Positions 15,018-33,913 of a stretch of DNA of 64,000 nucleotides are shown piece by piece. The position numbers were made by a program, and so were the translations under genes. The stretch is taken from positions 180,773-244,772 of the forward strand of contig NZ_AUUA01000004.1 of assembly GCF_000439085.1 (NCBI RefSeq), read 5' to 3'. This DNA comes from Leminorella grimontii ATCC 33999 = DSM 5078 (GTDB taxonomy: Bacteria > Pseudomonadota > Gammaproteobacteria > Enterobacterales > Enterobacteriaceae). Numbering within the stretch: position 1 is the first letter of the stretch; each line of letters begins with the position of its first letter. The notes beneath the pieces were generated by a model. It saw nothing but the letters and a program-made list of their open reading frames with translations, made no database searches and had not been told where the DNA came from.

Positions 15018-15355
15018 ATCGTATAGACAGGGCGCATCATATCCGCCAGCCCGGGCGCTGTCAACCGCTTGGAAACCTCGTTAAGCGCGTTTGCTTATAC
15101 TTCATCCAAAAAGGGCGCGATCCGTTTCTATTTTAGCCATTTTGATACTTTTTGGGCCTAATTTTATTTTTTCTACGCGGCTGGAAAAGCTACATATCTT
15201 TAGTCAGAAATATTCTCATACGGGTATAGCTATTGAAAAAAGTAATATAGACTTTAAGTCAAGGTGGCCGAGGCTGCAGAGAGTGGGTATTTAGCCATTG
15301 CTTTCAATTTCACTTTTCGCAGCGGCATAATATTTGATGGCTAAGTGGTGGGCGA

Positions 15356-17914
15356 GTGCGTTTATTTAATTCCATATCATTAAAACCGCTAGTGACGCTG
15401 CTGTTTGTGCTGCTGTTGACGATTACGCTAAGTTCGGCGCTGTTTCTCCAGTTTCGCAATGAATTGCGCATTTTTGAAAGGCTTAGCGACCGCGTGACGG
15501 CGACGCACATTGAGTCCGTTGGCACCCATCTTTTCAACTTTATGGAAGTTCCTATCCAGTCTAACGCGGCCGTTGAAATGGTAATGCGGGAAGTTCTGGA
15601 TGCCCCTAAAGATACGCTGGAAGAGTTTGAATCACCGCTGAAGAGCACGATGGAAAAAATATTTCCCAATATGCCTCAGCTCAGCCTGATTGCGTTTGGT
15701 TCGGTTAACGGGAATTACATTGCGGTTGACAGAGGCACTGAAAATGGCAATTTTCGACTGCTGTTAAAAGACGCTAGGACTCACGGCGTAATGAACTTCT
15801 ATTCGGGGATGAGCATTCAAAGTCCGATTATTAATAGCGTTAACCACTACGATCCTCGTCTTCTGCCTTGGTACCGTGATGTAGAAATTAATCGCCAAGC
15901 TGTCTGGACTACGGCCTATTGGGACCTCAACAAGGTTAGGGAACTGACGATTTCTTATAACAGCCCCGTCTATGACGCCAACAGGCGGTATGTGGGGGTC
16001 GTCTCCAGCGACATCAAGGTTGAGCGCTTTAATCAATATTTACGTTCTATCCCCAGCTTGGGCAACGGCGTGATATTCGTTCTGGATGGCGACAACGAAA
16101 TGATTTCTTATTCGTCGAACGATAAGCTCTATAACGCGCCGGAGAGAGGAACGTTACTACACGATAAGGCTAAGCTTCGTACCCCGCTGGACAGCACTAA
16201 CCCCATTATTCACACCATGGCGCCCTATTTGGTTGACAGAGGGCTGGATAAGTTCACTTTTACTTTGAATGGTGAAATATTTCATGCTCGAGTTGCTCCC
16301 TTTGGCGCTTCGCTGGGGCTAAAAGATTGGCGGATCGTTGTCGCCGTACCTCGAAGTGACTTTATTGGCAGGCTTGACGCCGACAGGCGTACAACTATTT
16401 TCCTTATTTTAGGCGTATTTCTGGTTGGCATAACTCTGGCCTGGGTTGTTTTATCAAAAGTGACCACACCGATATTGGACGCAGCCCGACAGGCGAAGCT
16501 GCTTGCCCGGCAGGAGTGGTCTCCGTCCCACGAGTCGGGCTTTCAGCTTAAAGAAATCCGGCAGCTTAATAATGCGTTTAACGAGATGTCATCCCGGCTG
16601 TCAGCGGCCTTTTCGTCCTTGAAACATCAAGTTAACTACGATCCCGTGAGCGGGCTTTTAAGCGCCGAAGGGCTGTTGGAACAAATGAAGGCTCTCGATT
16701 TCTCGGGGAAAAAGCCCAAGTGGCGTGGGTTGATAATGCTAAGCCTGGATAATATTAGCGACGTCAACAACACGCTAGGCTATCAGAAAGGTGAGTGGCT
16801 GTTGGGCGAGTTTGCGGCGTCCTTAAACGCTATTGTGCCTGAAGGCGCGCTGCTTGCCCGGGTCAACGACGTCGAATTTGCCGTCTGCTACCCCGAAAGC
16901 CACCAGGGCGATATTCTGAAAGATAAAATTCCGAAATATGTTCATCTCTACACCCACTCTCAGGGCAGTGAGCACCTGATGTTTGTCGGTAATATTGCTT
17001 TCGTTGATGAAACGTTTGACGACGAATCCTTAACGGAGTATCTGCGTAAAGCGTCTCTGGCACTGGTGAGCGCACGCAAAAAGGGTACCGGCGCCTATGA
17101 AGTATATCGGCCGGAAATGATGACTCAGGCAGTTGAGAATACTCGAATGCTGTCGGAATTAAGCCAGGCGCAGTTTAATCAAGAACTGCTGGTCTACTTT
17201 CAGCCTATCGTTGAGTTGCGCGACGGCAGAGTTATCGGCGCGGAGGCGCTGATCCGCTGGCGGAGTAGGGCCTATGGCATGGTGGCTCCCTACGTTTTCA
17301 TTCCTTTAGCGGAAGAGTCTGGTCTTATTCTCTCTATCGGCCGCTGGGTGCTAAAAGAGTCGTGTCGCCAACTGGCGTTGAAGATTTCTGCCGGCTGGCC
17401 GAAGGACTTTATGATTCATATCAACGTTTCTGCCCGTCAGCTTATGCAGCCTGACTTTTATGATTCCATTGTAGAATCGCTGCGCGAAAGCGAGCTTTCT
17501 CCATGTAATCTTGCTCTCGAACTCACGGAATCCATTCTGGTAGAGAAGGGAACCATCATTGGCGAGCAAATTGCGAAAATCAGGGCATTAGGGCTTTCGG
17601 TCGCGATCGACGACTTCGGTTCCGGCTTTTCCAGCCTTTCTTATTTATATCGTCTACAGTTTGATTGCCTGAAAATTGATAGAGACTTCGTCTGTGGCGT
17701 ACTTGAAAGCGGCAGGAGCGAAGCGATCGTCTCTGCTGTCGTGCGACTGGCTGACGGGCTATCCGTACCGCTGGTTGCAGAGGGTATTGAAACCGAGGAG
17801 GCTGCCGCGAAGCTATATCACTTGGGCTGTAAACGCGGACAGGGTTACTATTTTGGCAGACCGATTCCGTTGGATGAATGGGAAAAGCCTGAGGGAGATG
17901 GCAAGAGAGGGTGA
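15356..17914 (+). CDS. membrane c-di-GMP phosphodiesterase: periplasmic Cache-type sensor, degenerate GGDEF, intact EAL
   Basis: 852 aa. Two TM segments flank a roughly 300-aa periplasmic Cache-like domain. The GGDEF position reads RVNDVEF, which is degenerate. EAL motifs are present: ELRDGRVIGAEALIRW, DDFGSGFSSL and EGIETEE. The GTG start at 15356 is uncertain. Confidence 0.8.
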   Translation: MRLFNSISLKPLVTLLFVLLLTITLSSALFLQFRNELRIFERLSDRVTATHIESVGTHLFNFMEVPIQSNAAVEMVMREVLDAPKDTLEEFESPLKSTMEKIFPNMPQLSLIAFGSVNGNYIAVDRGTENGNFRLLLKDARTHGVMNFYSGMSIQSPIINSVNHYDPRLLPWYRDVEINRQAVWTTAYWDLNKVRELTISYNSPVYDANRRYVGVVSSDIKVERFNQYLRSIPSLGNGVIFVLDGDNEMISYSSNDKLYNAPERGTLLHDKAKLRTPLDSTNPIIHTMAPYLVDRGLDKFTFTLNGEIFHARVAPFGASLGLKDWRIVVAVPRSDFIGRLDADRRTTIFLILGVFLVGITLAWVVLSKVTTPILDAARQAKLLARQEWSPSHESGFQLKEIRQLNNAFNEMSSRLSAAFSSLKHQVNYDPVSGLLSAEGLLEQMKALDFSGKKPKWRGLIMLSLDNISDVNNTLGYQKGEWLLGEFAASLNAIVPEGALLARVNDVEFAVCYPESHQGDILKDKIPKYVHLYTHSQGSEHLMFVGNIAFVDETFDDESLTEYLRKASLALVSARKKGTGAYEVYRPEMMTQAVENTRMLSELSQAQFNQELLVYFQPIVELRDGRVIGAEALIRWRSRAYGMVAPYVFIPLAEESGLILSIGRWVLKESCRQLALKISAGWPKDFMIHINVSARQLMQPDFYDSIVESLRESELSPCNLALELTESILVEKGTIIGEQIAKIRALGLSVAIDDFGSGFSSLSYLYRLQFDCLKIDRDFVCGVLESGRSEAIVSAVVRLADGLSVPLVAEGIETEEAAAKLYHLGCKRGQGYYFGRPIPLDEWEKPEGDGKRG

Positions 17915-17936
17915 GGCTTGTATTGCCTCTGATAAC

Positions 17937-17966
17937 GAAAAAGCCCGCTTTAAAAGCGGGCTTTTG
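17937..17966. terminator. bidirectional terminator between PDE gene and second tRNA-Asn
   Basis: aagcccgctt-taa-aagcgggctt flanked by A and T runs. Confidence 0.7.
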
Positions 17967-17971
17967 AAATT

Positions 17972-18047
17972 TGGCTCCTCTGACTGGACTTGAACCAGTG
18001 ACATACGGATTAACAGTCCGCCGTTCTACCGACTGAACTACAGAGGA
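17972..18047 (-). tRNA. asn tRNA: tRNA-Asn (anticodon GUU), second copy
   Basis: Same sequence as copy 1 except one T-loop change (GGTTCAAGTCC vs GGTTCGAGTCC). About 40 bp of 5' flank is shared (gcgcatcatatccg...ctgtcaac). Confidence 0.95.
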
Positions 18048-20579: not shown

Positions 20580-21965
20580 TTAAAGGAACACGCCGCCGGA
20601 CTCGCCCAGCTTCTGATCGCCGGCCTTAGGCTTAGCTTTTGCCTTTGGCTTGGATGAGGTTGCTTTGGCCGGCTCAGCCTTGGCCTTATCGGCTTTAGCT
20701 TCGACTACCGGAGGGGCTAAGCGTGCGACAGCGCCTTTATCTACGGCTTCGATTTTACCGCTTTCGATTACGCCGTAAGAGATTTTGTCTTTAATTGAGG
20801 TAATCACGATGGTCGCGACTTTCTCTTCAGCGGCGCCGAGCACTTCACCCGTATCCGGATCGACCAGCTCTTCGCCCTGAGAGTAAATGTCAAAACGGTC
20901 GCCGTCATAAACCATGGCTTCGCCGCGGTTGATAATAACCTGACCGTTCGCCACGGCAACGACTTTAGCCGGCGTCAGCTTGTTAACGATTTTATCGGCG
21001 ATAACGTCGCTAATTTGCTTACGCGCGGTTTCAATGTATCGGCCGCTTTGCTCAAATACCGTAGAGTCAGACCACTGAATGCCGTGGGTTGCCGCTTCCA
21101 ACAGGGAGTAGCGAACGGTGACCTTGGTTTTTGACGAACTGGAGACGTCAAATTCGCCAGTCAGGTCAACGCTGGTGACTTTGGTGGTCGTTCTTACGCC
21201 GGCTTCGGTCACGTTAATGACCAGCAGATAGTCAGCGGGTAGGGCGGTTTGGCGAACGTCGATGGAGTTGTTCAAACGGCCTTCCAGAAACTTCTCTTCT
21301 GCTTCAAAAGCCTTGTCGTTAGTCGCGCTGCGATCCAGTACGGTGAAGCGCTGTGACTGAACGATACGGTCAGTGATTTCCTGACGAAGCGTATTGGCGA
21401 ACGCCGAACGGCTGCGGTTGCCGGTAGTGATAATCGCCAAACGATCGCGCTTTGAAGCCGCTTGAGACGTTTTGCGTTCTACCTTATCGATTTCAACGGT
21501 CAGAATAACCGTACAGCCTTTGGCATCGCAGTCGCGCGTTTTAACCTTATAGCCTTTTACCGTACCTGCGCTGCGCGTGTCTATCTGTGCGCTTTTGCCG
21601 GTATTTACGGTAACGTCGCGGTTGGCGTTTCCGCCTACGTTAACGTCAAGGTTTTCGGTGTAGGTAGAGTCGCCGGCCTTGTTGCTGAGAAACGAATTGT
21701 CGTTGTTCTTCGTATTCTCAACGTAGGTGCCTTTTCCTTCCACGTTAACGTCGGCTTTGTCTTTGATACGGACATAGTCACCCGCACGTTCAGACTGCGT
21801 TTTTACGGTCATTCCATTCACCTGACGAACGGCGTCGGCCAGAGCGGCATCGACGGCTTTTTCGTAGGTTTCACCGTATCCTTGTGCTTCGACGGTTTCA
21901 ATTTTTGCAAAAGCAGAAGATGAAAACGCCAGAAGTCCTACAAGTACCAAGATCCATTTTTTCAT
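20580..21965 (-). CDS. secreted protein with N-terminal LPP20-like domain, central CsgG-like (COG1462) domain and Lys/Ala/Pro-rich C-terminal tail
   Basis: Sec signal MKKWILVLVGLLAFSSSAFA. LPP20-like IETVEAQGYGETYEKAVDAALADAVRQ. CsgG-like LAIITTGNRSRSAF...RFTVLDRS...ADYLLVINVTEAG. Tail AKADKAKAEPAKATSSKPKAKAKPKAG. Probable start is the ATG at 21965; the TTG at 21971 in the ORF track is less likely. Confidence 0.7.
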   Translation of the reverse strand: MKKWILVLVGLLAFSSSAFAKIETVEAQGYGETYEKAVDAALADAVRQVNGMTVKTQSERAGDYVRIKDKADVNVEGKGTYVENTKNNDNSFLSNKAGDSTYTENLDVNVGGNANRDVTVNTGKSAQIDTRSAGTVKGYKVKTRDCDAKGCTVILTVEIDKVERKTSQAASKRDRLAIITTGNRSRSAFANTLRQEITDRIVQSQRFTVLDRSATNDKAFEAEEKFLEGRLNNSIDVRQTALPADYLLVINVTEAGVRTTTKVTSVDLTGEFDVSSSSKTKVTVRYSLLEAATHGIQWSDSTVFEQSGRYIETARKQISDVIADKIVNKLTPAKVVAVANGQVIINRGEAMVYDGDRFDIYSQGEELVDPDTGEVLGAAEEKVATIVITSIKDKISYGVIESGKIEAVDKGAVARLAPPVVEAKADKAKAEPAKATSSKPKAKAKPKAGDQKLGESGGVFL

Positions 21966-22047
21966 TAGCAAGCCCTAATGGATGAAACAAACTTATGCGG
22001 CACAGCCCAATCTCTTGTCGGGCGCGCCGCTCCTAGGCATTCCGTCA

Positions 22048-22665
22048 TTACCAGCTGGCGGTGCGATTGTCGCCGCGCTTGATGATGGGATACTCTTTTT
22101 CCCAGTAAGCCAAACCGTCATCGAGGTTGGTCAGCGTCAGCTGGAAGTAGTATTCAACCTGCTGAGTGCTGGAGTTTACGGTACGGTTTTGCTGAATGAT
22201 CTTACCGGTCAGCGAGAAGTCAGGTGCGATAACGCGGCCGTCTTTCTTAACGGTTTTCTGGTTGACCATCTTGGAATTACGCAGCTGGCGCACTTTACGG
22301 GTCATCTCATCTTCCGGACCGTTGGCGCTAATTGCCGTAGTCACTACGAAACGGCCAGAGTTTAGCAGGCTGGTGCGGATTTTCTTGGTCAACTGATCGG
22401 TATCGATACGCTGATCGGTGTCGTTGATAATGCCGGTAACCGTCAGTACATAACGACCGCCCTGCGGATGAACCAGCAGGTCGGAGCTCAACATGTCGTC
22501 AACCATGTTGGTCGCCGCCATTTCGAAGTCCTTATAGTCCAGGCCCATAATGGCTACGTTATCGTTTTTGCTGTCGACGTAGTAGGCGCCATCCTGCGCA
22601 CATCCAGCGAGAGAAAGGGCTACTGCCGCGGCAAGAAAAGTCTTTTTGTTAAAAATAGTCATCAT
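22048..22665 (-). CDS. LpoB-like / DUF799(GNA1162)-like outer-membrane lipoprotein
   Basis: Lipobox LSLAGC. The motif pattern YKDF..MV..ML / YVLTVTGIINDTDQRID..LTKKIRTSLLNSGRFVVT / DFSLTGKI resembles LpoB-family activator lipoproteins. Sits 76 bp upstream of the CsgG-like gene. Confidence 0.6.
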   Translation of the reverse strand: MMTIFNKKTFLAAAVALSLAGCAQDGAYYVDSKNDNVAIMGLDYKDFEMAATNMVDDMLSSDLLVHPQGGRYVLTVTGIINDTDQRIDTDQLTKKIRTSLLNSGRFVVTTAISANGPEDEMTRKVRQLRNSKMVNQKTVKKDGRVIAPDFSLTGKIIQQNRTVNSSTQQVEYYFQLTLTNLDDGLAYWEKEYPIIKRGDNRTASW

Positions 22666-22720
22666 AACGTTCTCAACATAAGTTTAGGGTTATTACGATA
22701 TCGATCCCTCAAGGGAAATT

Positions 22721-24091
22721 CTACATCGCATTCTTACTGGTTAATACGTCCACTTTAGGCTGCATCAGCGAATTTATACTGCGCACATAAACGACCACGG
22801 GCTGTGGCGTTGCCGGCAGATCGACGGTGATAGCTGAACCTCCTGAAGGAGCAATCTGAATCTTTTGACTGCTGGGCCATTTGACATAGGCAACCTGAAA
22901 ATCGTAGGGAAGCGTATGCCAGCTGCGGATATCGGCCTGAGTGGTGACTGCCTGGGCAATCCCTGTGATAGCGCCGAGGATCCTGACCGTTTTATTATCC
23001 GAGTTCATCATCGTCGCCTGCGCTGCCGTCTTCAGAACGGCGCGAGTGAGCTCTTTAATAAGGATTCCGGTAAATTCCGTTTTAAATTCACCCTGAATGA
23101 TTTTATCCATTTGGGCGAAGGATTCCGTTTTAGTCCCTCCATTGACTGAAAGATAAGGATACGCCGGGCTGCCTGATTCCAGCGTCGGTAGTGCAATACC
23201 CGCGTAGGCTACGCGTTTGGTTAATAAAATCAACGGTAAATCAATGCGCCGTTCGACTTTCTGAGCCGCCGCGCCGTTTTCAAAAATCACCCAGACGCCG
23301 GGCGGAACGCTGCGGCCTTTGCTGTTCGCCAGACTGAGGTCTGAGCGAATCTGACGGTTGCGCGTTAGCGCATAGGCGCGCTTAAGGCTTTCCTTGGCTT
23401 TGGCCAAATCGCCTGCGCTTTCGTTATTAATCAAGAAATAAAGGCCGTGCAGATAGAGAGAGGCGGGGTTGATATAGCCATCATAGGGCTTCCACTTGTC
23501 AACATCGATCCCTGATCCTTCCAGCGTTTCCATTGATTTTTTATACGTATCGCCCAGGTTATTGCTTTTTATGGCGCTTTTCTGCTCATTGATCTCTTTT
23601 GAAAAATGTTCCGCGGCCCTGCGCTGGCGGTCGTCAACCCGGTTCCACTCTACGCGGGCGTTGTTAAAATCGGCCTGTTGCCAAAAGTTCAGCGCCTTAT
23701 AGGTATTCACCATCACTCGGTCATAAACGCGCGGAGAGTAGTCCATGACGTTGTCGTTGACAACCATAGACGCAGCCTGGCTGAAGCCGGACGCCGCGAT
23801 GTTTTTGGTCTCATCCTCTTTAATCAGAAGCTCTGCGCCGTCAAAAACTTTGGTTGAACGGTCCAACTGGTTGGTCATGCGAAGCAGGGCGCCCGCTTCC
23901 AAAGACCACAGCAGGTTTGTCGCTTCGCCGCTGCCGGATACGCCTTCATCCAGCGCAATTTTTTCCGCCATTTCAATCTGACCCTGAGACAGGGAGTAGT
24001 CAAGGTTTTTACGTGAGGGGGGATTAGCGCAGGAGGCTAGAGTTAGGGCGATGCCACAGCAAAGCGATATACGTGAGATCTGATTTTTCAT
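22721..24091 (-). CDS. large lipoprotein of unknown function (456 aa)
   Basis: The start is the ATG at 24091 (MKNQISRISLCCGIALTLASCANPP, lipobox LASC). The 64-codon upstream extension in the ORF track is rejected. Helical and repeat-like content. Lies 55 bp upstream of the LpoB-like gene. Confidence 0.65.
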   Translation of the reverse strand: MKNQISRISLCCGIALTLASCANPPSRKNLDYSLSQGQIEMAEKIALDEGVSGSGEATNLLWSLEAGALLRMTNQLDRSTKVFDGAELLIKEDETKNIAASGFSQAASMVVNDNVMDYSPRVYDRVMVNTYKALNFWQQADFNNARVEWNRVDDRQRRAAEHFSKEINEQKSAIKSNNLGDTYKKSMETLEGSGIDVDKWKPYDGYINPASLYLHGLYFLINNESAGDLAKAKESLKRAYALTRNRQIRSDLSLANSKGRSVPPGVWVIFENGAAAQKVERRIDLPLILLTKRVAYAGIALPTLESGSPAYPYLSVNGGTKTESFAQMDKIIQGEFKTEFTGILIKELTRAVLKTAAQATMMNSDNKTVRILGAITGIAQAVTTQADIRSWHTLPYDFQVAYVKWPSSQKIQIAPSGGSAITVDLPATPQPVVVYVRSINSLMQPKVDVLTSKNAM

Positions 24092-24279
24092 AAGGTTTCT
24101 ATTATTGGTAGTTATTATGTTGTCGTATTTTTTTCGTCGTATTAAAGCCGTATCGTTTGATAAATGGCTAAAAGGGCTTCCCTGCCGACTTAAAATAAAT
24201 CTGCGCTGGGTTGCCGAACCGAGAGACGTACTTTCTTTTTGGCTTATTGCCTTCTCAGTTTTCCTTAATGCCATTTCCA

Positions 24280-24978
24280 TCAATTAAACCTCCGCCACAG
24301 CTGAATAAACTGCTGTTGGTAGAGATTTAAAAGATCGGGATTGTCCGTTACGAGCACGTTTTCATAGTTATGTTGAGATGCGCTCTTCGTCCAATTAAAG
24401 CTGCCGTTAAGCAAATAGCGGCCGTCAAAAATCGCGAACTTATGGTGCATATGATAGGGCGTATCGTCCATGACGATAGAAATGCCCTTACGCATCAGAT
24501 AGTCGATATCGCTGCCGCGGTCTTCCGACTTATCGTCATCAGTAATAATTCTGATTTTAATATTTCGCTGATGGGCACGCATAATAGCGTCGGTGATATC
24601 ATCATCGGCGATAGTGAATACGCAGATGTCAGCGCTTTGCTTTGTATGGGAGAGGAGGGCGCAGATTTTATCGCGACAGGCGTTGCCGGGAGAAAAAAAG
24701 GCAGTGCTGTTAACCTGTTTTTGCTGGCCGGAGAGGTCCAGCGTTTTAACAACCGTTTCCAGCCACTTCAGCACTGGCTGAAGATCGGTCGGAGCGGTAT
24801 CGAGATGGTCACGTACCAGATCGAAAGCGCGATTGCGCATGAATCCATACTGCTCCGCCGTGAGCGACTGGCTGATTTCCCTTAACTGGATACGCTCCCC
24901 CTGGCTTAACGAAAGATCGGCCAGCGAGTCTTCGAGGTAGCGTTCCAGCTCTTTATTTTCCATTGTCCTTTTTCTCAT
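24280..24978 (-). CDS. phospholipase D-family protein with single HKD motif (Nuc-like endonuclease fold) and unique N-terminal extension
   Basis: HMHHKFAIFDGRYLLNGSFNWT contains H-x-K-x4-D...GSxN. 232 aa, no signal peptide. Alternative start MENKEL at 24963. Confidence 0.75.
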   Translation of the reverse strand: MRKRTMENKELERYLEDSLADLSLSQGERIQLREISQSLTAEQYGFMRNRAFDLVRDHLDTAPTDLQPVLKWLETVVKTLDLSGQQKQVNSTAFFSPGNACRDKICALLSHTKQSADICVFTIADDDITDAIMRAHQRNIKIRIITDDDKSEDRGSDIDYLMRKGISIVMDDTPYHMHHKFAIFDGRYLLNGSFNWTKSASQHNYENVLVTDNPDLLNLYQQQFIQLWRRFN

Positions 24979-25244: not shown

Positions 25245-25805
25245 TTATTTTTTTAACCTATCCCTTCTCTTGGTGAATACGGCATAAAGAACGCCAGCCG
25301 CCGCGCCGGCGATGTGGCTTTCGGTTGAAATATAGGGATCGCTGGGCAGCAGGCCAGCCGCAATGCTGCCGTAATAAACGAGTACTAGCAGTGCAAAAAG
25401 CAGATCCAACAGCCTTCTGCGAGTGATTGCCTGAGCTAAAAGCAGCGCCCACAGGCCGAAAATCCATCCGCTGGCTCCAATATGATAGGCCGGACGGGCG
25501 AATAGCCAGACCAGCAATCCGCCGATAAAAATAATAGTCAGACTGGAGAACAGATAGTCCCGTATTGAATGCGTCATTAACAGCGCGCTGAGGAAAAGCA
25601 GTATCGGAAGGTTGCTAAAGAGATGCCTCCAATCGCCGTGAATAAACGGAGCCAGCGGGATCCCCCATAGTCCGTCCAAGCTGCGGGGCAGGATCCCCAG
25701 CGTCGCAAGCCGGCCGCCAAAAAGCGTATTGGCGCACTGAATGAGAATAAGCAGGGCCGCTAGAGCGGCCAACGTATAAACGCGATGCTTAAGCCAGGTC
25801 TTCAC
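25245..25805 (-). CDS. rhomboid-family intramembrane serine protease (short 6-TM form)
   Basis: 186 aa. Catalytic GASGWIFG and H in ESHIAGAAAG. GTG start at 25805 lies 6 nt after the stop of the upstream giant gene, consistent with translational coupling. Confidence 0.8.
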   Translation of the reverse strand: MKTWLKHRVYTLAALAALLILIQCANTLFGGRLATLGILPRSLDGLWGIPLAPFIHGDWRHLFSNLPILLFLSALLMTHSIRDYLFSSLTIIFIGGLLVWLFARPAYHIGASGWIFGLWALLLAQAITRRRLLDLLFALLVLVYYGSIAAGLLPSDPYISTESHIAGAAAGVLYAVFTKRRDRLKK

Positions 25806-25811
25806 CCTATG

Positions 25812-28800
25812 CTAGTTCCTCAATGCCTGGACGCTTTCAACCAGCGATGCCAGCTGAACAACAACGCGATCGCCGACGTCTGCGTTATCGCCGCCCAGCG
25901 CCTTGTTTTTCATAAAGTCGCGCTTAATTTGCTGCCAGCGCAGGGTCTCTTCCGGCGACATGGTGTCTCGAATTTCCGCCAGCTTAAGCAGGTTCTCTTC
26001 TGCGCCTTGAGTCAGCAGCTGCGCTTCTCCCAGATAGTGATCGTCAAGGATCTGGCGAATTTCTGCGGCGTTCATCACCGCCGAGATCTTCTCGGCCAGC
26101 TTGTTCATGTTGCGGTAGCTGCCCTGAAGCTTAAAGGGCGGTTCGGTTCGGTACTTATCCGACTGCGCGGCGCTGGCGATGTACTGCTGGTTGACCTTCA
26201 GCACCACGTCGCGCAGTGAAATCATGCGTTCCAGAATGGCGACGATCTCGCTAATTTCCGCTTCGCTATACTGATAGCTTAGCGACGTTGCGGAGAACGG
26301 CTTGCCCATGGCCTTATCGACAAACAGATAGAGATCGTTCATATCCCGCAGCGCCAGCGGCGCCAGCACAGGATTGGACGTCAGGCTGTTTTCTATATAG
26401 CTTAAGGCAAAGGCCTCTTCCATTCCGCCAAGCACTTCGCCCAGATTGTAGATGTCCGCCCGGTTGGCCAACATGTCGGGAATTTTGAATACCTCGCCGG
26501 ATTCCGTATACGGGTTGCCGGCCATGACGACGCAGAACTTTTTGCCGCGCATGTCGTAGGTTTTGGTCTTTCCTTTCCAAACGCCCTCGATGCGCCGCGT
26601 TCCGTCACACAGCGAAATAAACTTCTGCAGGAACTCGGGATGCGTATGCTGAATGTCGTCCACGTACAGCATCACGTTGTTGCCCATTTCCAGCGCCAGG
26701 TTGAGCTTTTCCAATTCCTGGCGGGCGGTGGCGTTCGGCGCCTGCTCGGGGTCGAGAGAAAGCACGTCGTGCCCCAGAGCAGGACCGTTGATCTTCATAA
26801 AGATCAGGCCCAGGCGGTTAGCGACGTACTCCATCAGCGTCGTTTTGCCGTAGCCGGGCGGAGATATCATCAGCAGGAGGCCCATCAGGTCTGTCCGCTT
26901 GTTTTCACCGATGGTGCCGATTTGCTTAGCCAGGTTATCGCCGATGATAGGTAGATACACGTCGTTAATCAGCTTGTTGCGAACGAAGGAACTTAGCGGC
27001 TTGGCCTTAAATTCGTGCAGGCGCAGGGCGTTTCTTTGCTCATTTAGCGCCTCCTGACGCAGCGACTGATAGCGCTGATAGCCGGGAATGAAGACCTTAC
27101 GCTGTTTGCGCATGCGTACGAAGTAGTCGTCTAACCTCAAGTGCAGAGACCTGTCGACGATAAGCGGATGTTCGCCCATCAGATCGCTTACCGTGAAGTG
27201 CAAATCGGCTTCGCTAAAGCGGGCAGTGGCCGATTTGTCCAACAGCGTGAGAACAACCGCTTCGGCAACGTAGTCGCACAGCGAAGCGTATTCCGGCAGA
27301 GAGCATAGCCCCTTGAGCCAGTTTTCTATCAGCGACCAGCGCTGGGCGTAGCGATGGCCCAAGTTCTGCTGGGACTGAATAAAGTCGCGCCACATGTGGG
27401 CCTGCGTCAGCCTGGCCTGTAGCCCTTCCAGCAGCGTTTTAGCATATTTGCTAAACGTAAACTCAAGGGGCGAGCGTCCCAGCGCTAGGCTGAGATATTC
27501 GGCAGCCTGGTGCTGTTGGTAAGGCTGGCAGCTTATCGGATTTTGCTCAAGGAACAGGCTTAACTCGGCCTCTATTTCCGCCTGCAGATCGAGCAAGCCT
27601 GAGTCGTGCCGGAACAGCTGTAAAATATTAAGGCTGGTGCGTGCGCGCTCCGGCCACAGCGACGGCAGCTCCTGCTTTTGTACGTGCTGCCAGAACAGCA
27701 CCGCCAGGCCGCGCGCCAACGGGTTAAAGCGCAGCAAATCCGCGCTTTGCCCGACCGGAATCAGCTTTTGTAAAATCGCGACGGCGTCATGGTCGTGAAT
27801 GCCTTTTTCATACCCTTCGCGGTAGCGCGGCGCGGCGAAGTCTCGTACGGCTTTTTCCAGCGCTTCCGGCTGATTAAGCAGGCTGGTCAGCGACTCCAGC
27901 GTTAGCCCGTCCTGCTCTTTGCTTGCCGCGTAAATCATCGAATAGGCCAGATACTCAGCGCGATAAACGCTGTCGGACTCAGACTCTATCGAAATTGGCC
28001 AGTAATCTTTCAGCTCGTCGAGTTCAGGCGTATTCAGCGGTTCCTGATAGTCGGTACCAGTCAGGTGTAGGAACAGGCGATCGCCGTGGGGCAAAATCGT
28101 GAGATCCAGCTCCTGCGTGTTGACGCTGAAACGATGGCGAGGGCCTAGTTTGATAACGCTGCCGTCGTTTTCAAAGATTTCCGACTTGTCCCTCAGGCTG
28201 CGGATAGCCTGATCGCGGGCGGCTTTGAACTTGGCGTCGATGTCGTCCGCTTTGACGCTGTCTTTCAGATCCCTTAGTCGCTCAACGATTTCCCTCGTTT
28301 TCAGCGAAAGAGGATCGGAGGCAAAGAACGCATTGAGCTCGTCCTGCGCGTTAAACTTGGCGGTTCGTCTGCGAATGCTGTCCAGCAGGCGTTCGGCGGC
28401 GACCTGAAGGTTTTGCGCCTTGCGTTGGCGCTCGTCAAGCAGCGCCTGCTTGTGGGTTTCAAACGTTTCCAGCAGCTCTTCGCGCTTGCCGAGAATGTCG
28501 TTTAGAAACTCATCGTGTTCGCTAAATTGGCTTTCCAGCTCTTCAAGCTGAACCAGCAGCCTTGAAAGCTGTTCATCGCAGCGCTCTGGGTCGGTTGCCA
28601 GCGAGAGCGCGTTGGCGATCCCCTGGCTGAACAGCTTGAACTGGGCGCCGAACTGAGCGACGGACTCGGTTGAGGTTTGCTCTTTACGGCGCTGCTGTAG
28701 CCGGGCTCTGGCCTGATTAAGCCGGGCGTAAATCTCTGAAATGGACTCAATGATGCGCGTTTGCTGCGTAGTGTCTTCAAACCGAAGCGACGCCATCAGG

Positions 28801-30749
28801 TTGGAGAGCATGTCCAAGTCTGCCGACATGGTGTCCATTTCGGCCATTGGCTCGGCCAGTTGGGCGCTGTTGACGGCCTCCTGGGTTTGCTTTTCCAGAT
28901 TTTGCAGGCGCTGATTGAAAGGGACAAGCGCCGCATCGCCGGCAAGAAACGACGCCGTCGCCAGCGAGATACGCTGCTGGCTTTCCGCCAGCTGTTTTTC
29001 CATCTCGTCTAAGCGTGCCAAATCGATATAGCGGTAGTCGCGCAGGGTGATAAGGTGGCCGCGCTGGACGCTCAGGGCGTTTAGCGCATCAACGAACTGC
29101 TGCGCGTCGGTCCAGCTGTCCGGCAGCATGGCGGACAGCAGCTGCTTTTGGCGCGTCGTCGCTTCGTTCATCGCGCGTACGGACTGGCGGCGAATGCTTT
29201 CTACTTTTTCGTATTCGTCCAGCACCAGCTCGCCGGTTTGGGCGATTTCTTTAAGCAGGATGGCGGCAAACAGGCTGTGCTCATCGTTAAGCCAGTAGTA
29301 GATGTCAATCAGGCGACGGGCGTCCTGACTTAGCTTTTCATAAAGCTGAGAGGAGATCTGCTGCTGTTCGATCTCTCTGGCGATGTGGTAAAGGTCGGAA
29401 ATCCCTCGCACCAGCTCGGCGTTGCCGATGCGGCCAAAGAAGCTGTTCTTGGCCGGCTGGCGCGCCGCGAATTCTTCCGAGTAGAAGGGCGTTTGCCAAA
29501 TCTGCATGGGATGAATGCGCGTTGGCTCGTCGGACTGACCTTCAAACAGCACCATTTTGCCGTCTTCCAGCATCGCGTAGCCGTGACCGAACAGCGGATT
29601 TTGCAGCCTGCGTTCGATCATGTTGTAGTTGAACAGCGCCAGTCGGCCTCGGTTGGGCTCATAAAATATGTACATGACGTCTTCGCCGTTTGGCGAACGC
29701 CTCACGCGGCGAAAGCGCATGCCGTCCATCGGCTGGTCGAAGGTTTTGTACTCGCCGTTTTGCAGGTAGTAGCCACCGGGGAAAATGATGCCGTGGTCTT
29801 CCGGCAGCTGGATACAGGCCTGTCCGATGGCGTCGATGCGCTGGACCGTTTGCGTCAGTGTGTTATAGACCAAATAGCGCCAGCTCTCTTCACGGTAGGG
29901 CAGCACTTTGATAAGGATCAGGCTGCCGGTTTGCGCATACTCGATTTGGGCGTCGTCCAGAGATTGGGTTTTATCCAGCACCGCTTCGCGATAGATCCCC
30001 AGCCCGTCCTCGGTGTTGTTTTCACACTTGATGGTCAGATCGCCGCCGATGGTTTCCACAAACACCGTATCAAGGATGTTCATGTGTGGATGTCGGCCGT
30101 TAACGGCATTTTCTCGCGTGGTTTTGTGCCATTCAAAGTCGTAGGCAGGGGGAAGGGCGATGTCGCGCTCGCCGCGGTTATCGATATAGCGGATTTCCGT
30201 CTTATCGCTTGAGATAGACCAGCGGAACACGCGGATGTCGGAGATGCGCTCGCCTATTTGAAAGCTGGCCAAAAGTTTGCCGTCGCGCTCGACCAGCTGT
30301 AGCAGCTGCGTGTTCTTGTAGTAGGTATAAAGCTCGTTGAAGTCCTGCACGAAGCTTTGAACGTTTAAGAACGTACCGGCCAAGGGGACGGACTCGACGT
30401 CGTACTCGCCGTTTTCCTCTTTTAACCGATAGAGAGAGAACACGTCTTCGATGCGGGTTTCTCTTTTTAGCCCGATAAAGACGTTATAGCCAAACAGCAG
30501 CCAGTCGCCGACGCGAACAATATCGCGGGCGACGCAGTTGTTTTCGGTACGAATACGAATGCGGCCGATGGCGTCCATTTGGCTTTTGCCAAACTCTTCC
30601 AGACGCCGGGCATTGAGCACGGCGGCTTTCTCATGCAGCTGTTGACCCTGTTCAGACAGCCGCTTGCGTAAGATATCGTAGGCGCCGCCTTCGGCAACGG
30701 CGTTATCCAATAATTCCTGTTCGCGCTGGTTTGTTTGACTGTCTGACAT
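25812..30749 (-). CDS. giant coiled-coil protein with C-terminal AAA+ ATPase (MoxR/AAA_5-like); unknown function
   Basis: The ORF is open 25812-30857 (1681 aa). The most plausible start is ATG 30749 (MSDSQTNQ, preceded by aaggga), but the start is ambiguous. N-terminal roughly 500 aa is beta-rich. A coiled-coil region of about 500 aa is rich in L/Q/E/R. C-terminal Walker A ISPPGYGKTT, Walker B VMLYVDDIQ, sensor VVMAGNP. Confidence 0.8.
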   Translation of the reverse strand: MSDSQTNQREQELLDNAVAEGGAYDILRKRLSEQGQQLHEKAAVLNARRLEEFGKSQMDAIGRIRIRTENNCVARDIVRVGDWLLFGYNVFIGLKRETRIEDVFSLYRLKEENGEYDVESVPLAGTFLNVQSFVQDFNELYTYYKNTQLLQLVERDGKLLASFQIGERISDIRVFRWSISSDKTEIRYIDNRGERDIALPPAYDFEWHKTTRENAVNGRHPHMNILDTVFVETIGGDLTIKCENNTEDGLGIYREAVLDKTQSLDDAQIEYAQTGSLILIKVLPYREESWRYLVYNTLTQTVQRIDAIGQACIQLPEDHGIIFPGGYYLQNGEYKTFDQPMDGMRFRRVRRSPNGEDVMYIFYEPNRGRLALFNYNMIERRLQNPLFGHGYAMLEDGKMVLFEGQSDEPTRIHPMQIWQTPFYSEEFAARQPAKNSFFGRIGNAELVRGISDLYHIAREIEQQQISSQLYEKLSQDARRLIDIYYWLNDEHSLFAAILLKEIAQTGELVLDEYEKVESIRRQSVRAMNEATTRQKQLLSAMLPDSWTDAQQFVDALNALSVQRGHLITLRDYRYIDLARLDEMEKQLAESQQRISLATASFLAGDAALVPFNQRLQNLEKQTQEAVNSAQLAEPMAEMDTMSADLDMLSNLMASLRFEDTTQQTRIIESISEIYARLNQARARLQQRRKEQTSTESVAQFGAQFKLFSQGIANALSLATDPERCDEQLSRLLVQLEELESQFSEHDEFLNDILGKREELLETFETHKQALLDERQRKAQNLQVAAERLLDSIRRRTAKFNAQDELNAFFASDPLSLKTREIVERLRDLKDSVKADDIDAKFKAARDQAIRSLRDKSEIFENDGSVIKLGPRHRFSVNTQELDLTILPHGDRLFLHLTGTDYQEPLNTPELDELKDYWPISIESESDSVYRAEYLAYSMIYAASKEQDGLTLESLTSLLNQPEALEKAVRDFAAPRYREGYEKGIHDHDAVAILQKLIPVGQSADLLRFNPLARGLAVLFWQHVQKQELPSLWPERARTSLNILQLFRHDSGLLDLQAEIEAELSLFLEQNPISCQPYQQHQAAEYLSLALGRSPLEFTFSKYAKTLLEGLQARLTQAHMWRDFIQSQQNLGHRYAQRWSLIENWLKGLCSLPEYASLCDYVAEAVVLTLLDKSATARFSEADLHFTVSDLMGEHPLIVDRSLHLRLDDYFVRMRKQRKVFIPGYQRYQSLRQEALNEQRNALRLHEFKAKPLSSFVRNKLINDVYLPIIGDNLAKQIGTIGENKRTDLMGLLLMISPPGYGKTTLMEYVANRLGLIFMKINGPALGHDVLSLDPEQAPNATARQELEKLNLALEMGNNVMLYVDDIQHTHPEFLQKFISLCDGTRRIEGVWKGKTKTYDMRGKKFCVVMAGNPYTESGEVFKIPDMLANRADIYNLGEVLGGMEEAFALSYIENSLTSNPVLAPLALRDMNDLYLFVDKAMGKPFSATSLSYQYSEAEISEIVAILERMISLRDVVLKVNQQYIASAAQSDKYRTEPPFKLQGSYRNMNKLAEKISAVMNAAEIRQILDDHYLGEAQLLTQGAEENLLKLAEIRDTMSPEETLRWQQIKRDFMKNKALGGDNADVGDRVVVQLASLVESVQALRN

Positions 30750-30911
30750 AGCGTGTAGCATTCCCTTTAACGATTCTACGCGCGCAGCCAGCGGGCTTAC
30801 GCGCTTCATAAGACTGACTGAGATAAGAACACGGCGCCGTATGCTTATCTCAGCCAACGTGGGCTAAAAACGCCCGACCTTTACCAGAGTAAAAGCCGGG
30901 CGCAGAGGACG

Positions 30912-33089
30912 TTACTCTTCGCTCACGCCGTGGTTGCCTGACGCGCCGGGCAGCGCTTTAGTGGCGCCAAACTGCTTTATCAGCGCCTGAACTTCAGGGT
31001 TTTGCAGCAGGGCGTCGAGGTCCAGCTTTTGGCCGTCCTTGCCGCTTAACAGCTTGTCGACCACGTTTTGCACCAGCGGGCTCTTTTCCACCACGCCGTT
31101 AATGGCTTTGCCTACGCTTAGCGCTTTAGAGAAGGTGTTAAAGAAGCTGCCGTCACCGCCCACAATGTCGATATTGGTCTTGCTGAGGGCCGACGCCAGA
31201 ACCTCCGCCTGCTCGCGAGCAATCTCTTTGTTGGCGGCAATTTCGGCCATGGCCTGCTCAAAGTGCTTCTCAAGACGCATGCGGAACTCTTCGTGGCTAC
31301 GTGCCGTATCGTTGAGGTTGCCCATAGCGGTGAACTTGTCGGTCAGACCGTCCGCCTCGGCCTTCAGGCGCTGGCGAATCACTTCGGCCTGCGCGGAGCC
31401 CAGTTGGCCCTCACCGCGAGCCTGTGCGCTCAGTTTTTCTTCCAGGATCTTGGCTTCCGCCAGACCCAGCTTCTCGTTAGCGGTGGCCTGCTGTTCGTCG
31501 CCGCGCGCTTGAGCGCTCAGCTTCTCTTCCAGCACCTTCGCGTCCGCCAGCCCTTGCTTCTGAGCGGCTTCGGCCTGCGCTTCCATCACGCGAGCCTGAG
31601 CCAGACCTTTTTCCTGAGTGCCGCGGGCTTCAGCCAGCAGTTTTTCGGCGGTGATGTTAGCCTGTACCAGACCCTCTTTCTCTTCCGCCTCGGCCTGCGC
31701 TTGGCGCACGCGAGCTTCCGCTAGCCCGGTTGCGGCCTGCTCGGCCTCGATACCTTCGGCCATACGCTTCTTGGCTTCCGCCTGCTTGGCGGCGGCTTCC
31801 AATTCGGCCTGAGCCATGGTGCTTATTTCCAACGCCCTAAACTTCGCGCTGTTTTCATCGGCTTCCGCCTGCTTGACCTGGCGCACCAGCTCCTGCTCGG
31901 CTGCGGCCTGCGCCTGGATCACGGTGACCTGCTTCTGACGGTCGGCGTCGGAGATCAGGCGAACTTCTTTGATGCGCTCTTCTTCCTGAGCGACGGTTTT
32001 TTCCACCGCGACGCGCTCGCGGATCACGTTAGCGATGTTCTTACGCTCTTCTTCCAGCGCCTTCTCTTTTTCGATGCGCTGCAGCTCGACTTCACGCTGG
32101 CGAGAGACCACTTCCAGCTCTTTCGCGCGGGTGACCTTTTCCATTTCAATGGTGACCGCGCGGGTGCGGTTTTGCTGTGCGACTTCCACTTCACGCAGGC
32201 GATTTTCTTCGCGAATTTCAATTTCCTGCTGGGTTTGGATGCGGGCCTGTTCGGCCTTCAGGCGCTCTTCTTCCTTCACGCGCAGCGTTTCAGCCGCTTC
32301 ACGTGCGCGGATGCTCTCGATTTCGCGCTGCTGGCGGGCTTCGGCGTCGGCCTGCTGACGCTCCAGCGCCAGGCTGGCTTCGCGGGTTTCCACGTTTTTC
32401 TTCTGGATGGCCAATTCCTGATCGCGTTCTTTCTGGTTGGTCTCGATGTTGTGGATAGCCGTGATTTCGGTGATCTTACGGATACCTTCGGCATCGAAGA
32501 TGTTGTTCGGATCGAGGGAGCTTTTCGGCGTTTGTTCCAAATAGTCGATGGCGACGTCTTCCAGCGCGTAGCCGTTAAGATCTTCACCGATAACGTCAAC
32601 GATGCGGTTGCGGAAGTTCTGGCGGTCTTCAAACAGCTTGGACAGCTCGAACTGCTTACCGACGGTTTTCAGCGCTTCGGAGAACTTGGCGTTAAACAGC
32701 TCGCTGACCGCCTGGTGATCGGAGGCGCGGTCTACGCCGATAGACTTGGCGACCTTCAGCACGTCTTCCGTTGTTTCATTTACGCGCAGGTAGAAGGCAA
32801 CGGTGATGTCGGCGCGCAGGTTGTCTTTACAGATAAGGCCGTCTTTGCCGCGGCGGTCTACTTCAAGCGTCAGCAGCGAAATGCGCATGAACTCTTTTTT
32901 GTAGATAACGGGATAAACCAGCGCGCCGGTAAAGTGCACCTTGGGCTGAGCGGTCATGTCGTTGACGATAAGCGCCGTCCCCTGAGGCACCTTGATGTAG
33001 AACGCCTTAAAAAGTCCAAATACGCCTAAAATAAAGACGATGAACCCGCCGATGCCGACGAGAAACGGCATGAGGTTTTCCATAGCCAT
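30912..33089 (-). CDS. yqiK: flotillin-family SPFH/band-7 protein (YqiK-like, extended 725 aa)
   Basis: N-terminal TM then SPFH core (KVPQGTALIVNDM...RADITVAFYLRVN). Long E/A/R/Q-rich coiled coil with internal tandem repeats (AKVLEEKLSAQARGDEQ / AKILEEKLSAQARGEGQ). Flotillin C-terminal region. Confidence 0.85.
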   Translation of the reverse strand: MAMENLMPFLVGIGGFIVFILGVFGLFKAFYIKVPQGTALIVNDMTAQPKVHFTGALVYPVIYKKEFMRISLLTLEVDRRGKDGLICKDNLRADITVAFYLRVNETTEDVLKVAKSIGVDRASDHQAVSELFNAKFSEALKTVGKQFELSKLFEDRQNFRNRIVDVIGEDLNGYALEDVAIDYLEQTPKSSLDPNNIFDAEGIRKITEITAIHNIETNQKERDQELAIQKKNVETREASLALERQQADAEARQQREIESIRAREAAETLRVKEEERLKAEQARIQTQQEIEIREENRLREVEVAQQNRTRAVTIEMEKVTRAKELEVVSRQREVELQRIEKEKALEEERKNIANVIRERVAVEKTVAQEEERIKEVRLISDADRQKQVTVIQAQAAAEQELVRQVKQAEADENSAKFRALEISTMAQAELEAAAKQAEAKKRMAEGIEAEQAATGLAEARVRQAQAEAEEKEGLVQANITAEKLLAEARGTQEKGLAQARVMEAQAEAAQKQGLADAKVLEEKLSAQARGDEQQATANEKLGLAEAKILEEKLSAQARGEGQLGSAQAEVIRQRLKAEADGLTDKFTAMGNLNDTARSHEEFRMRLEKHFEQAMAEIAANKEIAREQAEVLASALSKTNIDIVGGDGSFFNTFSKALSVGKAINGVVEKSPLVQNVVDKLLSGKDGQKLDLDALLQNPEVQALIKQFGATKALPGASGNHGVSEE

Positions 33090-33268
33090 AAGATGAGTGT
33101 CTCCGTGTTATACAAAGGGGGCTGGGCCCATAAGCTTAAGGTTTAAAACCGCTACCGGCTTTTAGTCGATAGCCATTATTCGAATTCGCCCCGAGCGCCG
33201 TAAGGGAGAAGGGCCGCGCTTGAACGAGCCGCGGCATTCCCACAACATGCAACGGGTAGTGCGCGAGG

Positions 33269-33913
33269 CTATAGTCGATTAAATTCTTCTTCGCTGACCA
33301 CGTCATAGCTGTGGGTTGCGGCGCTGTAGCTGATAATGACGACGAGGTCTCCGCGCTTGAGGCCTGCGTCTTCCGCCGCTCTGATTTGTAAGATAAGGCC
33401 AGCGCCGCCGTCTTCCATCAGGGCTTCGCCACGGCGCTCCGTGACGCTGTCTGAGCGCACTTTAGCCACTTTGCCGATCAGGTTTTTTACGCTTTTTTCT
33501 ACGTTGGTTTTAGCGAGGATCGGGCGAAACGGTTTCAGGATGAAGGCGGTTATCAGCAAGGCTACAAACGAGACAACAACAAGTACGACGACGCCGAGCG
33601 GATAACGAATCAGGTCGGTGTCAATAAATCGTAAGAACCAGTGAACGCTAAAGTAGCTCATAAACCAGCCGATAAAGCTGAAAAATGAGAGGATGATGGT
33701 GATGGGAATGCCCGCCAGGCCGAACTTCGCCAGCCAGCCGGCCAAGCCGCTGAGGTCTGCGCCATCGATGTCGACATCGGGCGTGTCAACGTTGAGAATA
33801 TCGGCGTCCATAAGGCCAAAAGAGGCGCTTATCCAATAAAGTAGCGTCAGAACCAGCAGGCCGCTGAAGATGATTGCCGGGAAGGTTAGACAGTTTTGCA
33901 AGAATACGGCCAT
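33269..33913 (-). CDS. yqiJ: NfeD-like short-form membrane protein (YqiJ-like)
   Basis: 214 aa. N-terminal TM helices plus C-terminal OB-fold-like soluble domain (KVAKVRSDSVTERRGEALMEDGGAGLILQIR...GDLVVII). Canonical partner of SPFH genes. Confidence 0.75.
   Translation of the reverse strand: MAVFLQNCLTFPAIIFSGLLVLTLLYWISASFGLMDADILNVDTPDVDIDGADLSGLAGWLAKFGLAGIPITIILSFFSFIGWFMSYFSVHWFLRFIDTDLIRYPLGVVVLVVVSFVALLITAFILKPFRPILAKTNVEKSVKNLIGKVAKVRSDSVTERRGEALMEDGGAGLILQIRAAEDAGLKRGDLVVIISYSAATHSYDVVSEEEFNRL

Follow-up and report, generated by a model that had tools for sequence, protein, structure and literature searches.

The 64,000-nucleotide (nt) stretch of Leminorella grimontii ATCC 33999 = DSM 5078 analysed here (contig NZ_AUUA01000004.1, positions 180,773 to 244,772; hereafter the window) carries a cluster of minus-strand genes for a YqiJ-like membrane protein, a flotillin, a giant AAA+ ATPase, a rhomboid protease and a phospholipase D (PLD) family protein. 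On balance, this locus is probably a flotillin-centred, Psp-associated inner-membrane maintenance module of the type described in Pseudomonas aeruginosa as bacABCDEF, with a mechanism that we infer. The YqiJ-like protein, the flotillin and an ATPase of about 1650 amino acids (aa), the last combining a propeller, a helical/coiled-coil region and an AAA+ domain, form an obligatory trio that is found across phyla. The Leminorella copy is an abbreviated form of the module, in which DUF2170 and PspA genes are absent in cis and the trio is followed by an accessory rhomboid and by an HKD enzyme of the MitoPLD/Nuc type. The recurrence of the rhomboid in other genomes, together with one case of an M50B protease, appears to represent an undescribed variant of a described, mechanistically unsolved system. 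The features of the locus, in window coordinates and in the order of transcription, are as follows.

33269..33913, minus strand: YqiJ/short-NfeD-like inner-membrane protein, 214 aa, equivalent to BacC/PA3730 (profile match to YqiJ, and position)
30912..33089, minus strand: flotillin-type SPFH protein, 725 aa, equivalent to YqiK/BacD/PA3729 (Band_7; BLASTP to YqiK)
31415..31601, minus strand: 87-nt tandem repeat in the coiled-coil region of the flotillin (Tandem Repeats Finder)
30865..30903, minus strand: 15-bp hairpin followed by UUUUU, resembling an intrinsic terminator or attenuator (RNA fold)
25812..30749, minus strand: giant cytosolic AAA+ ATPase, 1645 aa, equivalent to PA3728/BacE (Pfam; homologues)
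29295..30638, minus strand: DUF3686 region of the giant ATPase (Pfam, residues 74-521)
28680..28931, minus strand: DUF7902 segment of the giant ATPase, in the central helical, coiled-coil-like region (Pfam PF25472, E 4e-27; composition profile)
26493..26876, minus strand: AAA+ core of the giant ATPase (Pfam AAA, AAA_5)
25245..25805, minus strand: minimal rhomboid intramembrane serine protease, 186 aa (Pfam Rhomboid; motifs)
24280..24978, minus strand: soluble single-HKD phospholipase-D superfamily protein, 232 aa, equivalent to BacF/PA3727 (Pfam PLDc_2)

An earlier note on this DNA had described a block of four co-directional genes between 25245 and 33913. All four are present on the minus strand at these coordinates in the list of open reading frames (ORFs) and its translations, and the domain and profile matches agree with the identities that it had assigned. 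The block is larger than it supposed, since a fifth co-directional gene belonging to the conserved cluster, that of the HKD phospholipase-D family (24978..24280), had been missed, as had the connection to PspA. Several of its finer observations were confirmed. The GTG start of the rhomboid lies exactly 6 nt past the TAG of the giant gene, with an AGGA inside the end of the latter; the GYGKTT and VVMAGNP motifs are present in the giant protein and conserved among its homologues; the coiled coil of the flotillin is indeed repeat-expanded, holding 2.2 copies of an 87-nt tandem repeat with 75% matches; and the N-terminal domain of the giant protein is beta-rich in structure prediction.

Conservation of the cluster was surveyed in 80 loci taken from one-genome-per-species contigs; once the window and P. 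aeruginosa are counted in, 81 loci carry the giant gene. The count for the trio was restricted to loci with at least 3.2 kb of upstream sequence available. In all 74 of these informative loci the YqiJ-like, flotillin and ATPase genes are co-directional and succeed one another in this order, the YqiJ-like gene lying directly upstream of the flotillin gene in every case (74/74). The taxa concerned are the Gamma- and Betaproteobacteria, Myxococcota, Acidobacteriota, Actinomycetota (Planotetraspora) and one Clostridia metagenome-assembled genome (MAG). A PspA gene, usually accompanied by DUF2170, is present upstream in 41 of 72 loci.

The giant ORF (30857..25812) encodes 1681 aa from a TTG and 1645 aa from an ATG at 30749. 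Comparison with homologues makes this ATG most likely the real start, because a 100%-identical L. grimontii protein begins there and the other listed homologues cover the same 97-98% of the query; the N-terminal Met column is invariant in an alignment of 21 diverse giant-ATPase homologues, and an AAGGGA lies 9 nt upstream of the ATG. The earlier note had been unable to place the protein in any named family. Pfam assigns it to DUF3686 (E 1.7e-206) and DUF7902 (E 4e-27), with AAA and AAA_5 also over their cut-offs (AAA_5 at 25.9 bits versus 22), its family is named "DNA repair ATPase" at NCBI, and it shares 68% identity with P. aeruginosa PA3728/BacE, the cluster of which comprises 3222 member sequences. 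Identity across gammaproteobacterial orders amounts to 67-87%. In the predicted model of residues 37-560, which has a predicted local distance difference test score (pLDDT) of 88.9, a helix of about 50 residues leads into a beta-rich domain some 360 residues long, after which comes a helical bundle, and the beta-rich part of the DUF3686 region is modelled as beta-propeller-like. The C-terminus is an AAA+ domain which, on the model, has a probable hairpin ahead of sensor 1. Foldseek searches with this part returned MCM, Skd3/ClpB, RuvB, NorQ and Lon, all with low TM-scores, and the protein is not assigned to any AAA+ clade on account of these mixed matches. As regards the MoxR/AAA_5 ATPases in particular, NorQ appears among the matches alongside MCM, ClpB and RuvB, the model that shows the hairpin has a pLDDT of only 74, and Pfam scans of the cluster proteins detected no von Willebrand factor A (VWA) domain. 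Walker A (PPGYGKTT), sensor 1 (VVMAGNP, with its GNP) and a candidate arginine are invariant in the 21 homologues. Hydropathy analysis detected no transmembrane segment in the giant protein, and Pfam and NCBIfam models detected neither a peptidase domain nor a DNA-binding or repair domain.

The YqiJ-like protein (33913..33269) combines several hydrophobic segments at its N-terminus with an acidic loop and, at its C-terminus, a soluble domain rich in beta structure. Pfam yielded nothing significant for it, the Pfam YqiJ models being marginal only, and a profile search of the PDB with the alignment of the family gave no match; a profile of 15 orthologues, when compared with E. coli YqiJ, gave an hhalign probability of 91% (E 1e-6). 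Likewise, the full-length flotillin has no Pfam match, and Band_7/SPFH is detected (E 8e-8) only if the scan is confined to the N-terminal 232 aa; BLASTP aligns the protein to E. coli YqiK with 30% identity (E 2e-47). It contains one transmembrane segment within residues 1-35, followed by the Band_7 domain and by a long Ala/Glu-rich coiled coil.

Comparison with P. aeruginosa places the cluster among known systems. The P. aeruginosa locus reads DUF2170, PspA, a 213-aa protein, a 688-aa protein, the ATPase and a PLDc_2 protein, followed by yaeQ, recJ and lasB, and these neighbours agree with the locus tags PA3732-PA3727 (bacABCDEF). Counterparts of BacC, BacD, BacE (68% identity) and BacF occur in Leminorella in the same order and orientation, whereas neither BacA (DUF2170/CesT-like) nor BacB (PspA) has a counterpart in the Leminorella operon or window. 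A further difference is the rhomboid, which in Leminorella lies between the bacE and bacF equivalents and which the P. aeruginosa operon lacks; in addition, Leminorella shows a terminator-like hairpin after the flotillin gene, and a sigma-54 site was not found upstream of its operon. The bacA-bacF genes are reported to form one operon by reverse transcription PCR, and mutation of bacA raises the levels of all of their products (PMC10948618). Osmotic shock induces the PspA-like PA3731, mutation of which impairs biofilm formation, swarming, rhamnolipid production and virulence (PMC2587700). In another study, PA3728-PA3732 are up-regulated in all phage-infected samples (PMC12041424). From a comparative genomics perspective, Ravi et al. 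2024 described a neighbourhood combining CesT/Tir-PspA, a band-7/flotillin protein, an AAA+ ATPase with coiled coil and beta-propeller, and a YqiJ/YuaF protein, which in some Proteobacteria includes an HKD phospholipase D and of which PspA-less, abbreviated operons are widespread (PMC11237479). The Leminorella domain architectures fit this neighbourhood in its PspA-less abbreviated form, the optional HKD PLD included, but neither rhomboids nor other intramembrane proteases are mentioned in the paper (PMC11237479), whereas in the present survey a rhomboid is found at 13 of 77 loci and, once, an M50B protease. The system is thus not uncharacterised, as the earlier note had supposed, having been described by Ravi et al. 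2024 (PMC11237479) and studied as bacABCDEF (PMC2587700, PMC10948618). The first two Leminorella genes are also homologous to the NfeD-flotillin pairs yqiJK of E. coli and yuaF-floT of B. subtilis. The E. coli pair stands alone, without an ATPase, rhomboid or PLD gene after it, and the earlier note was right that neither the giant ATPase nor a rhomboid accompanies it.

The rhomboid (25805..25245, 186 aa, GTG start) matches Pfam Rhomboid with an E-value of 2e-20 and has about six transmembrane segments. Its catalytic motifs, HxxxxHLxxN, HxGxSG and SxExHxxGxxxG, do not vary among 14 orthologues, and judged by them the protein looks active. Rhombosortase (TIGR03902) was considered as its identity and rejected, the score of 37.6 bits falling short of the NCBIfam cut-off of 84. 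In 13 of 77 loci, all of them gammaproteobacterial where named (Enterobacterales, Pseudomonadaceae, Oleiphilaceae and Cellvibrionaceae), the ATPase gene is directly followed by a rhomboid gene of the same orientation, and in 12 of these 13 the rhomboid start is located between -10 and +15 nt from the ATPase stop, often with a 4-nt overlap. The linked rhomboids constitute one subfamily, and the flanks surveyed, about 2 Mb in all, contain no others. In a neighbour-joining tree built from the ATPase, the loci with a rhomboid belong to three related gammaproteobacterial groups, consisting of Cellvibrionaceae/Oleiphilaceae, of Enterobacterales with Entomomonas, and of Pseudomonas, with internal losses of the rhomboid, for instance in P. 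aeruginosa and Xenorhabdus yunnanensis. Pairwise identities of rhomboid and ATPase correlate with r = 0.81, although the pairs are not independent.

The subfamily was also sampled from the rhomboid side. It comprises 258 clusters at E <= 1e-5, and seven members were looked up for gene context. Two of them adjoin a DUF3686 gene (L085, L089), while those of Morganella (L083), Proteus (L086) and Photorhabdus (L087) reside at unrelated sites. A sixth (L084, 8654-9567) directly follows a rhodanese gene, like glpE-glpG of E. coli, a pairing that hints at the origin of the operon-linked rhomboid, and the seventh, on a Pseudomonas-like metagenome contig (L088, 7001-7561), stands alone between a coenzyme A (CoA)-transferase gene and a GGDEF-yaeQ-recJ block. 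No rhomboid adjoins the trios of Proteus and Morganella; a 201-aa gene after the Morganella ATPase was considered as one and rejected upon inspection. The idea that the rhomboid is an exclusive partner of the ATPase was likewise rejected, because of the unlinked members seen in this sample. In short, the rhomboid recurs in certain lineages as a facultative accessory, and is neither obligatory to the module nor there by chance. The view of the earlier note that the genes belong together, and are not neighbours by accident, is supported by the trio (74/74 loci) and by the return of the rhomboid to the same position (13/77 loci).

The fifth gene encodes a 232-aa protein with a match to Pfam PLDc_2 (E 1.3e-31), an HKD motif of the form HHKFAIFD...GSFN and no transmembrane segment by hydropathy. 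It starts 266 nt downstream of the rhomboid. Its nearest solved relatives are the mitochondrial cardiolipin hydrolase MitoPLD/Zucchini (9lkx, E 3.5e-29) and then the Nuc (E 3e-11) and NucT nucleases. Of 77 loci, 19 have a PLD gene downstream of the ATPase, and in 9 of these it comes with the rhomboid, in the order ATPase-rhomboid-PLD; the protein of the window groups with these 19 operon-linked PLDs.

In some of the loci that lack a rhomboid, other closely coupled genes occupy the position after the ATPase. In a Candidatus Thiodiazotropha MAG, a gene for a Peptidase_M50B-like intramembrane metalloprotease (L040:15273-15917, E 4e-45) overlaps the ATPase stop by 10 nt, the single case in the survey of an M50B protease in the slot of the rhomboid. 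An alpha/beta hydrolase gene is tightly coupled to the ATPase gene in a deltaproteobacterial MAG. In Comamonas, the ATPase gene is directly followed by a gene for a MscK-like mechanosensitive channel of about 1150 aa (L033:15521-19009, L034:15566-19012), which would fit a role in stress response, the Pseudomonas PspA homologue being reportedly induced by osmotic shock. In Stenotrophomonas, Lysobacter and Solilutibacter (L016, L019, L022, L025), the gene after the ATPase encodes a conserved Ala-rich soluble protein of 212-258 aa with a GWxGRLLGRD motif and no Pfam match; this gene of the Xanthomonadales overlaps the ATPase stop by -3 to -33 nt.

Taken as a membrane maintenance module, the locus suggests the following mechanism. 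The flotillin and the YqiJ-like protein would assemble into a cage or scaffold at the cytoplasmic side of the inner membrane, like the solved SPFH-NfeD and HflK/C complexes. The giant ATPase would dock on this scaffold by means of its propeller and its coiled-coil/helical region, and may spend ATP on remodelling or opening this assembly or any PspA polymers drawn to it, or else on extracting damaged membrane proteins. The rhomboid, or the M50B protease in its place, could cleave anchors or clients within the membrane and so enable their removal, while the HKD enzyme might modify cardiolipin-type lipids during repair. A model based on docking to the scaffold is favoured here because it is the flotillin/YqiJ pair, and not PspA, that invariably accompanies the ATPase, and because SPFH-NfeD and HflK/C proteins form cages. 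Envelope stress probably induces the module, by analogy with the Pseudomonas reports on osmotic shock, phage infection and biofilm growth. Flotillins and PspA of bacteria have been studied extensively, and the giant ATPase, present with a flotillin/NfeD pair in each informative locus, is an obvious candidate for the active remodelling of their assemblies. In this respect, Ravi et al. 2024 state that it is unknown how PspA homologues lacking an associated AAA ATPase regulate assembly (PMC11237479). If the ATPase were indeed the missing remodeller of flotillin or PspA assemblies, the importance of the system would be high. The recurring, translationally coupled rhomboid and the M50B case suggest that intramembrane proteolysis is part of what the module does, and Providencia, Xenorhabdus and several Pseudomonas species are tractable rhomboid-bearing organisms for comparison with P. 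aeruginosa.

According to work cited in a report on bacterial SPFH proteins (PMC13086221), SPFH-NfeD and HflK/C proteins form membrane cages, HflK/C being structurally associated with the AAA+ protease FtsH. With these assemblies and with the QmcA-YbbJ cages, as they are described there, the Leminorella cluster shares the pairing of an SPFH protein with an NfeD-type partner and the presence of an AAA+ enzyme alongside an SPFH assembly. The giant ATPase differs from FtsH in being soluble and devoid of a protease domain, with a predicted beta-propeller and a long helical region.

A more ambitious interpretation, which we regard as rather doubtful and advance tentatively, is that scaffold, ATPase, intramembrane protease and cardiolipin-hydrolase-like HKD enzyme together constitute a quality-control and repair hub of the inner membrane. 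The ATPase would then be a counterpart of Vps4/p97 that remodels or extracts SPFH cages, ESCRT-III-like PspA polymers or both, and the protease would license the removal of clients, in what would be a prokaryotic analogue of the SLP2-PARL-YME1L (SPY) and cardiolipin/MitoPLD circuitry. Both the mitochondrial SPY hub and the RHBDL4-erlin-p97 axis of the endoplasmic reticulum combine, at a membrane, a scaffold of the SPFH type with a rhomboid and an AAA+ machine. The Leminorella set of SPFH protein, rhomboid and AAA+ ATPase resembles them by analogy only, and its PLD resembles the mitochondrial cardiolipin hydrolase. The Leminorella ATPase, however, has neither an M41 protease domain nor a transmembrane anchor and is not FtsH- or p97-like beyond the AAA core, its SPFH protein is flotillin-type, not stomatin- or erlin-type, and its rhomboid is a minimal six-segment protein with a facultative link. 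The parallel with SPY that the earlier note had drawn is therefore reasonable as a functional analogy, but does not extend to membership.

A number of observations weigh against the interpretation of the locus as a Psp-associated maintenance module. Hidden Markov models built from 42 PspA and 41 DUF2170 orthologues detected no such ORF in the operon or in the rest of the 64-kb window. That all the genes are co-transcribed in Leminorella is unproven, given three features of the locus. Beginning 9 nt past the stop codon of the flotillin gene, a 15-bp hairpin with a U5 tail folds at -25 kcal/mol (z-score -4.65; 0 of 200 shuffles fold as well), and could act as an attenuator that holds the ATPase below the levels of the scaffold; the 266-nt spacer between rhomboid and PLD is AT-rich and contains a weak terminator-like site; and the search for a sigma-54 site upstream of the operon gave matches at or below chance, the only near one overlapping the start codon. 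The ATPase itself raises doubts as well. DUF3686 ATPases have no known biochemical function, all mechanistic steps being inference. The C-terminal model is the weaker one (pLDDT 74), so that the AAA+ core with its beta-hairpin ahead of the sensor-1 strand is of moderate confidence and its clade assignment is soft. Walker B (LYVDDIQH, window 26760-26790) reads Asp-Asp instead of Asp-Glu in 21 of 21 homologues, and the rate and mode of ATP hydrolysis are hence uncertain; an invariant Glu is located 7 residues downstream of it in the same alignment. The N-terminal anchors of the flotillins show no feature that distinguishes rhomboid-bearing from rhomboid-less loci, and thus nominate no substrate for the rhomboid. 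In P. aeruginosa, single and multiple deletions of the paFlo flotillins caused no pronounced phenotypic changes (PMC13086221). Lastly, the link to the rhomboid is facultative. Homologues 51-60% identical to it occupy the unrelated sites in Morganella, Proteus and Photorhabdus, and the Pseudomonas-like contig L088 keeps a rhomboid without the operon at the site of the P. aeruginosa bac operon (L001), where it may be a remnant left after loss of that operon.

These last observations are also the basis for an alternative in which the adjacency of the rhomboid is incidental, the protein being a general housekeeping protease with no functional tie to the flotillin system. Only two of the seven sampled homologues adjoin a DUF3686 gene, those of Morganella, Proteus and Photorhabdus occupy unrelated sites, the trios of Proteus and Morganella are without a neighbouring rhomboid, one homologue is paired with a rhodanese gene in the manner of glpE-glpG, the Pseudomonas-like contig L088 has a rhomboid and no operon, and P. 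aeruginosa has an operon that lacks the rhomboid. We nonetheless judge this explanation unlikely. It does not readily account for a placement that is constant, in position and in strand, among 13 of 77 loci whose named taxa include Enterobacterales, Pseudomonadaceae, Oleiphilaceae and Cellvibrionaceae, for stop and start codons that overlap or lie at most 15 nt apart in 12 of those 13, for the lack of any other rhomboid in the surveyed flanks, for the correlated divergence of rhomboid and ATPase, or for an M50B intramembrane protease in the same slot. Another alternative is that of an anti-phage or conflict system, in which the propeller ATPase senses infection, the HKD nuclease and the rhomboid kill or arrest the cell, and the flotillin/YqiJ pair serves as a membrane platform. 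Such a role would be consistent with the increase of PA3728-PA3732 in all phage-infected P. aeruginosa samples (PMC12041424), with the varying nature of the gene after the ATPase (PLD, rhomboid, M50B, alpha/beta hydrolase), which resembles the swapping of effectors, and with the relationship of the PLD to the Nuc and NucT nucleases. Phage induction, however, also defines the Psp stress response and therefore does not discriminate between defence and stress. Enrichment in defence islands, a prospect raised by the earlier note, is not borne out: a scan of the YqiJ-like protein, flotillin, ATPase and rhomboid against PADLOC-DB 2.0 returned 0 families at E <= 0.01 (the PLD was not scanned), the ATPase N-domain is encoded in 0 phage records and in 13 of 72,556 plasmid records, mostly megaplasmids or chromosome-sized, and the neighbours of the cluster in the window are of housekeeping type. 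Moreover, an ATPase that is 67-87% identical across gammaproteobacterial orders, and whose 3222-sequence P. aeruginosa cluster is shown at one chromosomal site, is unlike the fast-evolving and patchily distributed genes of defence systems. We accordingly consider a defence function quite improbable.

The database name might also be taken literally, the protein then being a DNA-repair ATPase that works with a Nuc-like HKD nuclease and has the membrane genes as mere neighbours. In addition to the Pfam and NCBI names, the relationship of the HKD protein to the Nuc and NucT endonucleases and the presence of MCM and RuvB among the best structural matches of the AAA+ model point in this direction. 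Yet the TM-scores of MCM and RuvB are about 0.2, indicative of a generic AAA+ fold only, and cardiolipin hydrolase is a nearer relative of the HKD protein than Nuc is (E 3.5e-29 and 3e-11, respectively). A search for DUF3686 in the library of papers used here found no mention of it, and the domain searches reported above detected nothing related to DNA binding or repair. The genes that accompany the ATPase are those of the flotillin and the YqiJ-like protein (74/74) and of PspA (41/72), and never consistently repair genes. The name is thus without support from the domains, the neighbourhood or the literature found, and a function in DNA repair is extremely unlikely.

The surroundings of the cluster bear on a further claim of the earlier note, which had placed the block in accessory DNA between a tRNA-Asn gene and amiD. 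A divergent amiD does lie upstream of the cluster; the tRNA-Asn, on the other hand, is about 7 kb away, with other genes in between. Around the cluster, the window contains genes of housekeeping type, namely amiD and those for an NAD-epimerase-like protein, a methyltransferase, an Fe-alcohol dehydrogenase and a GGDEF-EAL protein. A megablast search of the 8.7-kb region against E. coli genomes gave no match. Past the PLD gene, on the same strand (20580-24283), lie a 520-aa ORF, an LpoB-like lipoprotein gene (Pfam LpoB, E 7e-42) and a 463-aa ORF with a signal peptide. These three genes were considered as parts of the system and rejected, the same three following the PLD gene only in Limnobaculum (L002). 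Two of the three are without a Pfam match, and the N-termini of the three resemble those of exported lipoproteins; the 520-aa ORF probably starts at an internal Met, with the lipobox LTLASC. Among the plasmid records, NC_009444.1 of P. fluorescens SBW25 (425 kb) encodes at 92395-93963 a DUF3686 ATPase with an N-domain 61% identical to that of the window, annotated as 'DNA repair ATPase'. Further away in the window (14942-18047), two minus-strand tRNA-Asn(GTT) genes flank a plus-strand gene for an 852-aa dCache-GGDEF-EAL protein (15356-17914).

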